The translations under genes and the position numbers were made by a program. From IMG/VR virus record IMGVR_UViG_3300035696_000024, positions 26,209 through 90,208 of that record: a stretch of DNA of 64,000 bases; one strand, written 5' to 3'. Source of the stretch: a virus. Positions 5,528 through 49,125 of this stretch are shown one piece after another. Below the pieces are notes generated by a model. The model saw only the letters and a program-made list of their open reading frames with translations. It was not told where the DNA came from and ran no database searches. How positions within the stretch are numbered: the stretch's first letter is position 1; the number at the start of each line of letters is the position of its first letter.

Positions 5528-6307
5528 ATGTCGGAAGAAAAGTATTTTGACGCTGAAAAAGTAGTTGTCAGAAAAATAGATAAGGCTGTTGCAGAAGAAA
5601 TGATTGTAAAATATCACTATTCTCATAAATGGTCTTTGTGTCAGGTTGCATATGGTGTTTTTTACATTACTGATAAGCAATGCAAATTTTTCAATGCGGT
5701 GGAAGAAAAACTTATCGGTTGTATTGTGTTTGGTCAACCTGTCGGACGTTCTGCGGCTGAATCTGTTTCAAAATTAATAAACGTTTATGAAGTTTTTGAA
5801 CTTACCAGATTGTTTATTCATGATGGATATGGAAAGAATATTGAAAGTTATTCAATAGCAAAATCTTTGGAACTTGTAAGGAGAGATTTTCCACAAATTA
5901 AAGCAATCATTTCCTATGCAGATGGTGAACAGGGTCATAAAGGAACAATATATCAAGCATGTAATTTTTATTACCAAGGAAATTCATCCTTAGCTTTGAT
6001 GCCAAATTATTCTGTTTCCTTGGTGGGTCCGCCGTATCAGTGGATACATTCTAGAACAATTTCATCAACATACGGGTCACATAACGTGGAACATTTAAAG
6101 AAAAAAATAGGTCATACATTTTGGCGGAAAAAGGAGTCTTCAAAACATAGATATGTTTTTTTGTTGGGTAGTAAAACAGAAAGAAGAAAGATACTAAAAA
6201 ACCTTAAGCATCCCTTCGAATCAATCTACCCGAAAGATACAAGTCATACGGATGAAATAGAGGAAATTACGGTGGATACTCCGACAGAAAATCAGTTCTT
6301 TGGGTGA
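5528..6307 (+). CDS. Mom-family GNAT-fold DNA modification protein
   Basis: YHYSH, FELTRLF, ESYSIAKSL, IISYAD..QGHKGTIYQACNF, KHRYVF. Confidence 0.75.
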   Translation: MSEEKYFDAEKVVVRKIDKAVAEEMIVKYHYSHKWSLCQVAYGVFYITDKQCKFFNAVEEKLIGCIVFGQPVGRSAAESVSKLINVYEVFELTRLFIHDGYGKNIESYSIAKSLELVRRDFPQIKAIISYADGEQGHKGTIYQACNFYYQGNSSLALMPNYSVSLVGPPYQWIHSRTISSTYGSHNVEHLKKKIGHTFWRKKESSKHRYVFLLGSKTERRKILKNLKHPFESIYPKDTSHTDEIEEITVDTPTENQFFG

Positions 6308-6328
6308 AATATCCATATTTATAGTAAT

Positions 6329-7903
6329 ATGGAGCACAGTTTATTAATAGACAGAGAAAGAGTAATACAAGGTAGTGGTATTAGTGGAAGAATAATTGTC
6401 GCACTGCGTTTCACAGAATTAGAGGCTACCAGTTTTGAACAGGCCATCGAGAATTACAATAAAACATCACCCAATAAAAATTTGGTGGTCGCATTTATTG
6501 ATTCTCATACAGGTGAAACCATTAAAGGGCCAAAATATGATACTACAACTCAATCTTTGGGTAAATATAACATAAAAAAATTTTTAGAGCCGGGAGTAAA
6601 GCAACAAGCACCAATAGAACCATCACAACACGAACCGAGAGATAGATTTGATGAATGGGGAAAGAAACCAAGATATAGAAAGCAAATTGTAATTAAGAAA
6701 AAATTATTAGGCGGATATTCGATTATTGCTTATGGTGCAGACGGTAAGATAGAAAATAATGGGTTATTACAGTTTATTGTAGATACACCTCGAAAAGCTG
6801 CAGTAACAGCTAATCATTTACATGATAGATACAAGTGGCCTATTGTAGATTTAACCAGAGAAACAATTGCGAAGATGTCAGTATGTAGGTTGTGTGCTGA
6901 TGAATTTAATAACGACGAAGAGTTATTCATTCATTTACACAAAGTTCATCAAGTGCCAGATAATGAAATATTAAATAACGGTTTTTGGGTGAATATAAAT
7001 AAACTCATAAGTAATCATCAATATCTTCGTCAACATTTGCCAAATAAAATAAAACCTATGAATGAAATCAATAAATTCAGAAATATGATCAGAGAATGTA
7101 TCTCTGAAATCAAAAAAGAAAATGACCCAAAGACACGTCTCAAGGAATCTCTTCGTAATGTGGTCAAAGATGTTTTAAGTGAAATGAGCACTCTTACGAC
7201 CAGCGGTAAACCAGACCAAACCAAGGATGAAAAAGAAGCATCGGACAAGCAATATTTTAAAGACCCCAATCCAAGACTTAACAAAACCAATGTCAAACAG
7301 CAAACTGAACTGGACACACTTGTTAAAGGCATTGACCCTTCATGGGAAGCCTATTGGGATGACCATCAACAATTGATAGTCCGAGCGCAAAATCTTTTGT
7401 ACATTCGAATTTGTCAAAGATTTGAAAATAGTTACGATGTGGATGCTATGGTTAAATTAGTTGATAGAGTTCGTGCCATTGCCCTTACATGGGACCAAGT
7501 CAAAGCATTTGTTAAAGCAAATTTCAGTGATTTGAAGAACAAGACCATTCCCGATAAGCAAAGGGAAAAAGCTATCAATAATTACGATGACAAGGAAGTA
7601 ATTAAGAAGGATGCTGGACCGGAAAAGGCCAAAGTTGGTGTCAGATATCAAGACCCAAAACACGGCACAATTAAAGACACCAAGAAAGATGACAAAGACT
7701 ATAATGAACCCCAAACAAAGAGGGATGAGGATATGCCTGACCAACCGATGAAACAGGTCACAGAACCCGGTAAAGACCCTGAATCTAAAAATAAGAACAT
7801 CGAAAAAACGCCCAAGGTCAAACCACCTAAACATAAGAATGACAAGACGTTAAGGGTAAAAGATAAGAAGACTTCCAAATTTGTCTTAAAGAAGAGAGCC
7901 TAA
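6329..7903 (+). CDS. Modular hypothetical protein with C2H2 finger and charged low-complexity tail
   Basis: 524 aa ORF; TATTTATA at 6316-6323; CRLCADEF...LFIHLHKVH; RNMIRECISE and LRNVVKDVLSE motifs. Confidence 0.7.
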   Translation: MEHSLLIDRERVIQGSGISGRIIVALRFTELEATSFEQAIENYNKTSPNKNLVVAFIDSHTGETIKGPKYDTTTQSLGKYNIKKFLEPGVKQQAPIEPSQHEPRDRFDEWGKKPRYRKQIVIKKKLLGGYSIIAYGADGKIENNGLLQFIVDTPRKAAVTANHLHDRYKWPIVDLTRETIAKMSVCRLCADEFNNDEELFIHLHKVHQVPDNEILNNGFWVNINKLISNHQYLRQHLPNKIKPMNEINKFRNMIRECISEIKKENDPKTRLKESLRNVVKDVLSEMSTLTTSGKPDQTKDEKEASDKQYFKDPNPRLNKTNVKQQTELDTLVKGIDPSWEAYWDDHQQLIVRAQNLLYIRICQRFENSYDVDAMVKLVDRVRAIALTWDQVKAFVKANFSDLKNKTIPDKQREKAINNYDDKEVIKKDAGPEKAKVGVRYQDPKHGTIKDTKKDDKDYNEPQTKRDEDMPDQPMKQVTEPGKDPESKNKNIEKTPKVKPPKHKNDKTLRVKDKKTSKFVLKKRA

Positions 7904-7930
7904 TACATACCCCATTTATTGCTTCACAAG

Positions 7931-47626: not shown

Positions 47627-48413
47627 TTTTACAATCAGAGAAGTAAATAAATATACCGCAGCGGAGTTAGTTCAACAACATCATTATTCCAAAGTAATGC
47701 CGCGACTTACCAAGCATTATCTTGGTGTGTTTATCGGAGACAAAATGGTTGGTGTATTGACACTTGGTTGGGGAACACAACCCATTGCCACTATTCGAAA
47801 ACTCTTTCCATCATTGGCAACCAAGGATTATTATGAAATTGGAAAAATGTGTATGCTCCCCGAAATGCCAAAGAATTCTGAATCACAAATGTTGTCTGCG
47901 GTTATTAAATGGATGAAAATAAATCTACCAAAGAAATTGTTTTTATACACTTGGGCCGATGGAATTGTTGGAAAGTGTGGTTACGTGTACCAATCAGCTA
48001 ATTTCTTGTATGGTGGTTTTATATGGACTGATATTTACATTGGCCCTGATGGTGAAAAAATTCATCCAAGAACTTCACACAATCTATGCGTTGAAAATGC
48101 TAAATTCTGTAACAAGGAGAGAGTTTTTTGGCTGACGCGAGATTTTATGAAAATGAAAGGTATCACTAGAATTAGGGGAAAACAATTCAGATACATTATG
48201 CCCTTATCCAAGGAAGCTAGAAAAATGCTTGACAAATCCACGGTTAAATGGACAATAGATTATCCAAAAGAGGCCGATTTGGAATGGAAAAAACAAGTTG
48301 ATGATGGCTATGAAATTATAAAAAATATGCCAAAAATTGATTTGGGAGTCGTCAATGTAAATAAAAAAAATGTCAATTCTTGTAAGACAGCTAAACATGA
48401 GTTTTTCGGATGA
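47616..48413 (+). CDS. Mom-family GNAT-fold protein
   Basis: HHYSK, VGVLTLGWG, YEIGKMC, NSESQMLS, YTWAD..GKCGYVYQSANF, QFRY. Confidence 0.75.
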   Translation: MKFDFTIREVNKYTAAELVQQHHYSKVMPRLTKHYLGVFIGDKMVGVLTLGWGTQPIATIRKLFPSLATKDYYEIGKMCMLPEMPKNSESQMLSAVIKWMKINLPKKLFLYTWADGIVGKCGYVYQSANFLYGGFIWTDIYIGPDGEKIHPRTSHNLCVENAKFCNKERVFWLTRDFMKMKGITRIRGKQFRYIMPLSKEARKMLDKSTVKWTIDYPKEADLEWKKQVDDGYEIIKNMPKIDLGVVNVNKKNVNSCKTAKHEFFG

Positions 48414-48583
48414 ATTATAGAGAAGAATATATAAAGGTTTATTGTAAGCATTGTGGGGCTGACCAAAAAATTAAGATAGTTCGTTTTCAAAATGATGGCG
48501 AAGTTCGTGGTGCGTCAAGGTGTTGGCACTGTAAAAAAACATTTGCGTGGACTAAGCAGTGGAAATCGTGGGAATTAATATGA
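48410..48583 (+). CDS. Small Zn-finger protein (not in ORF track)
   Basis: MNYREEYIKVYCKHCG...RCWHCKK...; ATGA overlaps on both sides. Confidence 0.6.
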   Translation: MNYREEYIKVYCKHCGADQKIKIVRFQNDGEVRGASRCWHCKKTFAWTKQWKSWELI

Positions 48584-49125
48584 GTGAAAAATTTACAACA
48601 AATTTTAAGTCCATCTTTGATACGCCTGCCGATGCTTATGTGAACACCATCAATTGTGTTGGTGTAATGGGTGCGGGTATCGCTTTGGAATTTAAAAAGA
48701 GATATCCGATTATGTTTGAACATTATAGAGAACAATGTTTGAAACATGCAATTCGTCCCGGTGATTGTTACACTTATTTTGATGCTGAACATCAAATTTA
48801 TCTTCTTGGGTTGGCCGTAAAGGATGATTGGAAACATTGGAGCACTCTTGAATGGATTGAATCATCAATCAAGTCATTGAAACTTGCCGTTTTGGAAAAT
48901 GACATCAAATCAGTGAACATGCCTCTTCTTGGCGGAAAAAATGGAAGGCGTGGCCCTTATGGTAAAGTTATTGGTTTCACTCCACCACCGAGTAGAATAG
49001 AAATAAAACAATTGATTGAGAAGGAACTTAAACCTTTTGCTGAAAAATTCAGTATAGATATTCAGTTGTGTCTCCCTGACGAAGCGCCTCCTAAACCTAA
49101 AATAACTTTGGAGACATTCGCATAG
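48580..49125 (+). CDS. Macro domain ADP-ribosylhydrolase (DarG/Poa1p-like)
   Basis: VNTINCVGVMGAGIALEFKKRYP, KDDWK, MPLLGG; start moved to ATG 48580. Confidence 0.85.
   Translation: MSEKFTTNFKSIFDTPADAYVNTINCVGVMGAGIALEFKKRYPIMFEHYREQCLKHAIRPGDCYTYFDAEHQIYLLGLAVKDDWKHWSTLEWIESSIKSLKLAVLENDIKSVNMPLLGGKNGRRGPYGKVIGFTPPPSRIEIKQLIEKELKPFAEKFSIDIQLCLPDEAPPKPKITLETFA

Follow-up and report, generated by a model that had tools for sequence, protein, structure and literature searches.

Terminal tails shared by Mom-family enzymes, a macrodomain and the DNA polymerase of a jumbo phage: candidate peptides for the sliding clamp

The subject of this article is a set of short terminal peptides on the proteins of a virus, encoded in a stretch of 64,000 nucleotides (positions 26,209 to 90,208 of IMG/VR virus record IMGVR_UViG_3300035696_000024) that we call the window. 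Two DNA-modification enzymes assigned to the Mom family, here MomA and MomB, and a macrodomain of the DarG/TARG1 type end in tails that are conserved motifs, enriched in these families and appended to the enzymes. Judged by its sequence, the motif, either an aromatic pair or the pattern L-x-x-F, appears to be of the same kind as the C-terminal clamp peptide of the phage DNA polymerase. The explanation that we favour, with slightly more confidence than doubt, is that the tails are clamp-interaction peptides, through which the PCNA-like sliding clamp of the phage would recruit DNA-modifying enzymes and a de-ADP-ribosylase. Clamp tethering is plausible and unproven: we infer both the identity of the partner and the coupling of genome protection to replication.

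The window comes from a jumbo phage with a genome of about 365 kb, whose T4-type replisome combines a PCNA-like clamp with a family-B polymerase and an RFC-like clamp loader. Its parent contig (G000) is 90 kb long and estimated to be 26% complete; a relative whose proteins are about 86% identical (G006) is represented by a 365-kb contig, estimated to be 100% complete, and the cultured phage with the closest polymerase is Microcystis phage Mel-JY01, at 43% identity. Families were assigned by Pfam and PHROG profile searches. The genes at the centre of the argument are the following.

42574..43857, + strand: N-terminal half of the family-B polymerase (exonuclease and start of the palm); PF03104, PF00136; phrog_262, E 6.7e-94
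44862..46199, + strand: C-terminal half of the family-B polymerase (palm, thumb); PF00136, E 2.4e-28; phrog_262
5528..6307, + strand: MomA, Mom-family (GNAT-like) DNA-modification enzyme of 259 amino acids; PF25680, E 1.2e-43; phrog_1384
47616..48413, + strand: MomB, second Mom-family enzyme, 265 amino acids; PF25680, E 9.6e-54
48580..49125, + strand: DarG/TARG1-type macrodomain, 181 amino acids counted from the ATG at 48580, a GTG at 48559 being open as well; PF01661, E 4.5e-9
49199..49951, + strand: PCNA-like sliding clamp of 250 amino acids, recognized by fold match and proposed as the docking platform
50161..51144, + strand: RFC/gp44-like clamp-loader AAA+ subunit; phrog_168, E 2.9e-69; PF00004, PF13177

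Downstream of the polymerase C-half come three small open reading frames (ORFs), then MomB, the macrodomain, the clamp and the loader. A preliminary description of the window had listed terminal aromatic peptides on six of its proteins, proposed that they dock on the clamp, and expected the tails to be conserved in homologues; all six peptides were found where it had placed them.

The polymerase provides the reference. Its C-half ends ...ATASKFFDFGE (tail at 46164-46196, KFFDFGE at 46176-46196) and matches the RB69/T4 gp43 structures (phmmer, E 6e-22), a homology that points to the phage clamp as the likely partner of what appears to be a tail of the clamp-binding type. Unsplit orthologues of the window's clade keep [QNT]FF[DE]F, the polymerase of Mel-JY01 ends ...LSKFFNFK, and those of related phages finish in TLEDFFG, SLEDFFG, SLESFFE, NLEAFFS or T[LIM]ERFF. 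Tail statistics were computed on the distinct C-termini of ORFs of at least 150 amino acids in 160 related viral loci; the counts include related sequences and orthologues and do not represent independent events. An aromatic pair lies in the last four residues of 37 of the 45 polymerase C-termini, against 31 of 916 for the other ORFs (3.4%), and the motif [ST][LIM][DE]x[FLWYM] lies in the last nine residues of 32 of the 45, against 3 of 916 (0.3%).

The polymerase of the window is split, with a phrog_98 gene (43859-44257) and an HNH/endonuclease VII-like gene (44309-44872) between the two halves; close relatives (L001, L005, L012 and others) have one unsplit ORF of 869-908 residues, measured from stop to stop.

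Both Mom proteins match PF25680 over the whole domain, MomA with 149.6 bits (profile positions 2-198 of 202) and MomB with 182.6 bits (positions 1-195), for a cut-off of 27.1, and it is on these matches that we place them in the Mom family. The domain stops at residue 226 of 259 in MomA, where an acidic linker follows, and at residue 207 of 265 in MomB; the tails sit outside the catalytic domains, on a variable linker. MomA ends ...TENQFFG (tail at about 6284-6304, NQFFG at 6290-6304), and MomB ends ...AKHEFFG (tail at about 48390-48410, HEFFG at 48396-48410). The two proteins are 23% identical and carry extensions of different length, yet both finish in FFG.

The conservation of these ends was followed in 120 cluster representatives for each protein. 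Representatives of MomA, at 94-63% identity, have FF in the last six residues in 119 cases and YF in the other one, which makes an aromatic pair in 120 of 120; 73 of them end in FFG, and one finishes in NFFDFS, as the polymerase does. In an alignment of 115 representatives, the two F columns are 99% identical with an entropy of 0.07 bit, to be compared with 2-3.3 bit, and indels, in the linker columns just before them, and with a mean of 0.96 bit for the protein. Of the 33 representatives closest to MomB, 25 finish in FFG, and the last six residues include an aromatic pair in 30. The expected conservation is thus found throughout the MomA representatives and, for MomB, among the closest ones. 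On the sample of distinct C-termini described above, an aromatic pair occupies the last four residues of 28 of 82 for MomA and 18 of 42 for MomB, against the same 31 of 916, and Moms of related loci end in TLEGFF, TLENFF, SLYKFFE, SLEEFFE or HDFF.

Representatives of MomB that lack a tail typically stop just past the conserved ...KNVNAHK. On a tree of the MomB core, computed from the 120 representatives with their last 25 residues removed, the minimum number of changes is 13 for the tail state and seven for the presence or absence of a tail; shuffled labels yield about 46 changes. Neither the polymerase profile of the window nor its clamp profile found a match on five contigs that hold tail-less MomB homologues, a correlation that is weak because most of the five are fragments (8-51% complete), two being near complete.

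One of these contigs, G002, complete at 380 kb, is alone among the five in containing a divergent family-B polymerase, which ends ...SKEEKEYF, and it has a second Mom paralogue that ends ...EEEKEWF, a single anecdote in favour of matching tails (L042/L030, G002/G001; L089). On the same contig the MomB-type protein is tail-less, and the profiles used here picked up no clamp.

Outside the lineages studied here, Mom homologues of a Psychrobacter siphophage and of an Edwardsiella phage, 50% identical, stop at the core motif. The Mom protein of phage Mu, which belongs to PF25680 like ours and has about 30% tblastn identity to MomB, differs by ending at the conserved core ...PYPK, with no linker, extension or tail; it makes the N6-carbamoylmethyl-adenine modification, and to our knowledge Mu has no clamp of its own. 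Since all three stop at the core, we regard the tail with its linker as an appendage of the lineages studied.

The macrodomain matches PF01661 with 36.7 bits for a cut-off of 22, and the match stops at residue 125 of 188, before the tail. A phmmer comparison with the PDB returns 5m31_A (8.4e-19) and 5m3i_A (5.7e-17), which we take to be chains of DarG macrodomains, and TARG1/C6orf130 chains at about 4e-3; these matches are the basis for assigning the protein to the DarG/TARG1 type. The names 5M31 and DarG occur together in PMC5179494. The protein ends ...KITLETFA (49099-49122), and its TLETFA (49105-49122) resembles a PCNA-interacting peptide (PIP) of the form L-x-x-F, with one aromatic residue. 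The pattern TL[DE]xF is kept in all 16 loci that have an orthologue of this macrodomain, corresponding to 8 of 8 distinct tails, so the conservation expected by the preliminary description holds here as well; with [ST][LIM][DE]x[FLWYM] in the last nine residues, the count is again 8 of 8, against 3 of 916 other ORFs. The orthologue of locus L014 ends in the full motif RTLEEFFNV, and a macrodomain at 60% identity finishes in NNEFFGY, as the Moms do. A wider search gave 150 representatives, mostly distant and tail-less, two of them with a TLExF-like end and six with an aromatic pair; a scan of viral contigs with the macrodomain gave 12 close relatives only.

The clamp itself was identified by its fold: the ORF at 49199-49951 has no match in Pfam or PHROG searches. 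An AlphaFold2 model built from the single sequence had a pLDDT of 35.6 and was replaced by a model built from an alignment of 107 sequences, with a pLDDT of 94.9 and a pTM of 0.91. This model matches PCNA chains over its full length with a Foldseek probability of 1.0, and archaeal and eukaryotic PCNA with VIA Z 18-20 (216-227 aligned residues, span 1-249). Since the alignment-based fold matches PCNA, and since the clamp gene stands directly upstream of the clamp-loader gene, the proposed docking platform is real: the model identifies it as a PCNA-like two-domain clamp rather than one of the gp45 Pfam type. The preliminary description had called it a gp45-like clamp; it was right about the clamp, and the type needs correction. 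PF09116, the C-terminal domain of gp45, is present in three of 21 records, namely Methylophilales phage Melnitz, G009 and G017, and no match to it came from the close relatives G006 and G013. Phages with tail-bearing Moms carry their own clamp, of the gp45 type in these three records and PCNA-like elsewhere, and in the window the cognate clamp and loader are encoded in the same genome as the tailed enzymes.

The fold of the window's clamp is nearer to archaeal and eukaryotic PCNA than a gp45 label suggests, and no T4 or RB69 gp45 chain is among the matches listed (50 per fold search).

The tails were also sought in unbiased scans of entire contigs. On the 90-kb parent contig of the window, FF is present in the last five residues of 2 of 98 ORFs of at least 80 amino acids, and these are the two Mom paralogues. 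In Melnitz, a cultured phage with a complete genome, [ST][LIM][DE]x[FLWYM][FLWYI].{0,3}$ retrieves 2 of 216 ORFs, TLEDFFG being the end of the polymerase and TLEGFF that of a Mom-like protein. A looser expression applied to the complete 171-kb genome G009 retains 3 of 213 ORFs: the polymerase (SLESFFE), a Mom (TLENFF) and a nucleotidase. In G006, FF.{0,1}$ is matched by 3 of 536 ORFs, which are MomA, MomB and an N6/N4 DNA methylase of family PF01555 (E 9.5e-33).

The position of the genes adds to this picture. In 54 of the 80 loci found with MomA (L092-L171, not dereplicated), the MomA-related gene shares its strand with a clamp gene of the type seen in the window, at a median distance of 740 nt from centre to centre. 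At least 38 of the 80 have the order polymerase, clamp, Mom, clamp loader, their ORFs overlapping at the ends (for example L110 6229-8630 and L162 9282-11667).

Several of the Moms placed between clamp and loader end in GFYE, in KWKN or in nothing aromatic.

The methylase of G006 led to other PF01555 methylases with tails, at the following places.

L190, 9646-10392 (268646-269392 of G006): tailed PF01555 methylase
L054, 7134-8432: tailed PF01555 methylase
L018, 2337-3644: tailed PF01555 methylase
L020, 9111-10001: tailed PF01555 methylase
L035, 1083-2018 and 11283-12164: two tailed PF01555 methylases

A phmmer search of all collected ORFs with three queries gave nine distinct methylase C-termini, six of which are tailed: NRFFS, QHDFF, NDFWE, NEFWG, GEFWK and NTLERMLR. 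In two loci the methylase and the Mom have similar tails, QHDFF and KHDFF in L054, NDFWE and HKFWR in L020.

Relatives of the G006 methylase in other viral contigs show a different peptide close to the C-terminus, Q[LIMV]x[LIM][FLP], at a frequency of 5 in 54 distinct tails, where the background has 9 in 1807 (Fisher p = 2.8e-5). These peptides, QLDLF, QMTLF, QISLPL and QISMF (L275, L291-L293, L239, L306, L251/L254/L255), resemble the bacterial beta-clamp-binding consensus QL[SD]LF.

Two further peptides of the preliminary description belong to paralogues of the DruA/DUF4338 family.

9322..10638, + strand: DruA/DUF4338 paralogue 1, ending ...KDLFFNDVGR; PF14236, E 1.9e-26
11996..12748, + strand: DruA/DUF4338 paralogue 2, starting MSIAMSFFD; PF14236, E 3.5e-20

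The end of the first one, DLFFNDVGR (10609-10635), had been counted with the terminal aromatic pairs, and this part of the proposal is not supported. Orthologues down to about 35-40% identity keep [YF][FL]xx[VI]GR, inside which the pair varies (FF, YF, YL); more distant homologues end ...D[IM][IV]R, with no aromatics, and none of the 20 distinct C-termini of the family has an aromatic pair in its last four residues. Since the conserved end is common to distant homologues without aromatics, we read the FF as probably part of a C-terminal element intrinsic to the family and not of a clamp tail. The N-terminus of the second paralogue may be a clamp motif, on weak evidence: its SFFD resembles the SKFFDF of the polymerase, a handful of orthologues begin with SFFD, SFID, SFFN or KFFD, and in G006 a pattern FF[DE][FILVY] at most 14 residues from the N-terminus occurs in 1 of 536 ORFs where 0.32 are expected, which is near chance.

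If the tails do bind the clamp, they would most likely insert into the hydrophobic pocket and the interdomain-connector region of the clamp trimer. The enzymes would then travel with the clamps left on newly made DNA, or concentrate on them, and base modification and the removal of ADP-ribose added by DarT-type toxins would occur as the DNA is made.

Such an arrangement has counterparts. In T4, the tail of gp43 and the N-terminus of RNase H bind gp45, and the PIP consensus is given as Qxxhxxaa, with the PIP box of RNase H at its N-terminus (PMC3012046). The T4 record has gp43 ending ...ASLDFLFG, gp55 ...PSLDFLYEAND and gp33 ...NTLDFLL. The tails described here are like those of the T4 and RB69 gp45 clients in being short hydrophobic or aromatic terminal peptides after an acidic linker, and the ITLETFA of the macrodomain fits the same L-x-x-F pattern. 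They differ in their bearers, base-modifying enzymes and a de-ADP-ribosylase here, factors of replication and late transcription there, and also in that the window's clamp is PCNA-like and its Mom tails keep the aromatic pair only. The eukaryotic methyltransferase DNMT1 is another counterpart, as a short motif tethers a DNA-modifying enzyme to a PCNA-type clamp and modification follows replication; human PCNA with the DNMT1 PIP box motif (PDB 6k3a) is among the structural matches of our clamp model. The DNMT1 motif is a canonical PIP box, internal or N-terminal, and serves eukaryotic maintenance methylation, not phage anti-restriction.

Closer to phages, the alpha-glucosyltransferase of T4 was proposed, on an in vitro basis, to ride gp45 and to modify DNA during replication (bioRxiv 10.64898/2025.12.06.692756); the enzyme ends ...KEQFDIITK in the T4 record, which is not the SLDFL motif. 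Anti-DarT proteins borne by phages are described for ICP1, as an anti-DarT factor, and for a chimallivirus, as a DarG2-like protein (PMC11481870, PMC13309987), and the word 'clamp' is absent from the main text of both articles; what is specific to the macrodomain of the window is its PIP-like tail and the clamp gene that directly follows it. DarT works on single-stranded DNA (PMC11481870 or PMC13309987), and for this reason a DarG-type enzyme tethered to the clamp would make sense. Among open-access full texts and the main texts of bioRxiv, we found no description that links Mom-like enzymes or phage DNA methylases to the clamp through terminal tails.

Several observations weigh against the clamp as the common partner of these tails. 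Those of the window's Moms, ENQFFG and HEFFG, consist of the aromatic pair only and lack the hydrophobic position 4 of the canonical PIP box, Qxx[LIM]xx[FY][FY], whose T4-type counterpart is [ST]LDFL[FYL]; full motifs are found in relatives: QTTLEDFF in the Melnitz polymerase, TATLEGFF in the Melnitz Mom and NTLENFF in the Mom of G009. Over all 120 representatives of MomB, an aromatic pair is present in 51, a TLExF-like end alone in four, and neither in 65. In the clades whose polymerases end in T[LIM]ERFF and FGFNKFF, the Moms end in GFYE, RFYE or KWKN, or have no such end, though their genes adjoin the clamp gene. Polymerase and Mom tails of the same genome are not more alike than shuffled pairs: for 34 polymerase tail types, without the L130 polymerase ORF and its apparent frameshift at the end, the ungapped BLOSUM62 score is 12.62, and 5000 shuffles of the labels give 12.18 +/- 0.47 (p = 0.17), a result for which covariation of the two tails was dropped as support. 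The tail of the G006 methylase is carried otherwise by an identical copy alone, with no diverged orthologues, and in the wider family of this methylase an aromatic pair is found in 1 of 53 distinct tails. The looser expressions, used on G006, G009, G011 and G012, also match unrelated proteins (baseplate, terminase, epimerases, radical-SAM and RNA-ligase-like proteins), which is the expected background. Orthologues are not independent events, and for this reason the Fisher p values of the enrichments are too optimistic: 1.6e-26 (Moms), 1.3e-17 (macrodomain) and 3.4e-7 (methylases). Finally, in the pull-downs reported in a 2025 preprint, neither of the T4 glucosyltransferases co-purified with gp45, at odds with the earlier in vitro claim, which is the one phage precedent cited for a modification enzyme on gp45; the enzymes were C-terminally His-tagged (bioRxiv 10.64898/2025.12.06.692756).

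There is the possibility, unlikely in our view and still the most serious of the alternatives, that each tail serves its own family, by packing on its own domain, by oligomerisation or autoinhibition, or as a degradation signal, and that the likeness to the polymerase is superficial. The incomplete PIP boxes of the window's Moms would fit this explanation, as would the Mom tails GFYE, KWKN and GKFI of other clades, which are unlike their polymerase tails, and the DruA pair at 9322, which belongs to a family-wide C-terminal element. It has more trouble with the presence of one motif on four unrelated folds, the GNAT-like Mom, the macrodomain, the N6/N4 methylase and the family-B polymerase, and with its restriction to members of phage lineages, since Mu Mom and cellular DarG-type macrodomains do without it. 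The tails also swap between families, as the NFFDFS of a MomA and the NNEFFGY of a macrodomain illustrate, and the state of the MomB tail changed at least 13 times on the core tree. A different partner is less probable still: the tails would bind some other shared hub, such as the beta clamp of the host, the polymerase itself, the single-stranded DNA-binding protein SSB, or a factor that gathers proteins in a replication compartment. That several unrelated enzyme families have the tail implies a common partner without naming it, beta-clamp-like peptides do exist on relatives of the G006 methylase (the 5 of 54 against 9 of 1807 given above), and overall the Mom tail of a genome does not follow its polymerase tail. 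However, the same kind of tail is found on the phage polymerase, where the homology to RB69/T4 gp43 indicates the phage clamp; Mom genes are embedded between the genes of the clamp and its loader; and the phages with tailed Moms encode a clamp of their own.

Chance likeness of a few ends rich in F, kept by shared ancestry among orthologues, seems to us very improbable. From a content of about 4.5% Phe, we estimate that some two FFx$ ends are expected in 536 ORFs, and it is true that loose expressions match unrelated proteins and that counts over orthologues are not independent. Against this stand the FF columns, near-invariant beside linker columns of 2-3 bit at 63-94% identity, the three FFx$ proteins of G006, DNA-modifying enzymes without exception, the matches in Melnitz, which are a polymerase and a Mom only, and the two Mom paralogues, which at 23% identity and with extensions of different lengths both end in FFG. 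The docking on the clamp put forward by the preliminary description thus keeps part of its support: the tails are conserved, lie outside the catalytic domains and are T4-like, the clamp is real, methylases have similar tails and the Mom genes are syntenic with the clamp; the DruA pair at 9322 probably does not belong to it.

A few other observations concern the surroundings of these genes. Between the two Mom regions, at 12745-36247, the window has a long block of mostly minus-strand genes with a lower GC content of 0.31-0.35. At 46628-46978 it encodes a phrog_10928 protein of 116 amino acids, Cys-rich in its N-terminal residues, whose orthologues keep a C-terminal [FY]DAG or [FY]DAE (DRTYDAG, DRFYDAE, NTIFDAG, DVIYDAG). 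Outside the window, at 6243-6575 of G000 (L081 6243-6575), a protein of 110 amino acids with an N-terminal hydrophobic helix and no match in Pfam or PHROG ends ...KATLEMFYNSD; its orthologue at 32235-32546 of G006 ends ...DTLKMFYNR, and the end resembles the ...SLDFLYEAND of T4 gp55. Queries made of the gp55-like and gp33-like proteins of Melnitz, which would have served as positive-control clients, had no match in G000 (26% complete), G006, G007 and G008.

The tethering of modifying enzymes to the clamp would be of a known kind, that of PIP-type clients such as DNMT1 on PCNA or the clients of T4 gp45; Mom enzymes and a macrodomain would be new among them. A wider conjecture, to which we give a little less than even chances, is that aquatic T4-like and jumbo phages commonly share a clamp tool-belt that armours the genome. 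Mom-type acyltransferases, N6/N4 methylases and the macrodomain would have gained polymerase-like PIP tails repeatedly, the Mom gene would have moved between the clamp and loader genes in many clades, and modification and ADP-ribose removal would take place behind the fork; the methylases of other phages may use the beta clamp of the host through tails of the QLDLF type.

If the tails are clamp peptides, they would explain how a phage modifies or repairs each new copy of its DNA before host nucleases or DarT-type toxins act, and enzymes of DNA hypermodification, together with an anti-toxin enzyme, would become additional clients of the clamp. Replication-coupled modification in T4-like phages, a contested idea, would be revived with clearer sequence signatures, the clearest pair of tails being that of the cultured phage Melnitz. 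A polymerase-like terminal tail would then be a sequence rule for spotting replisome-associated counter-defence genes in uncultured phages.

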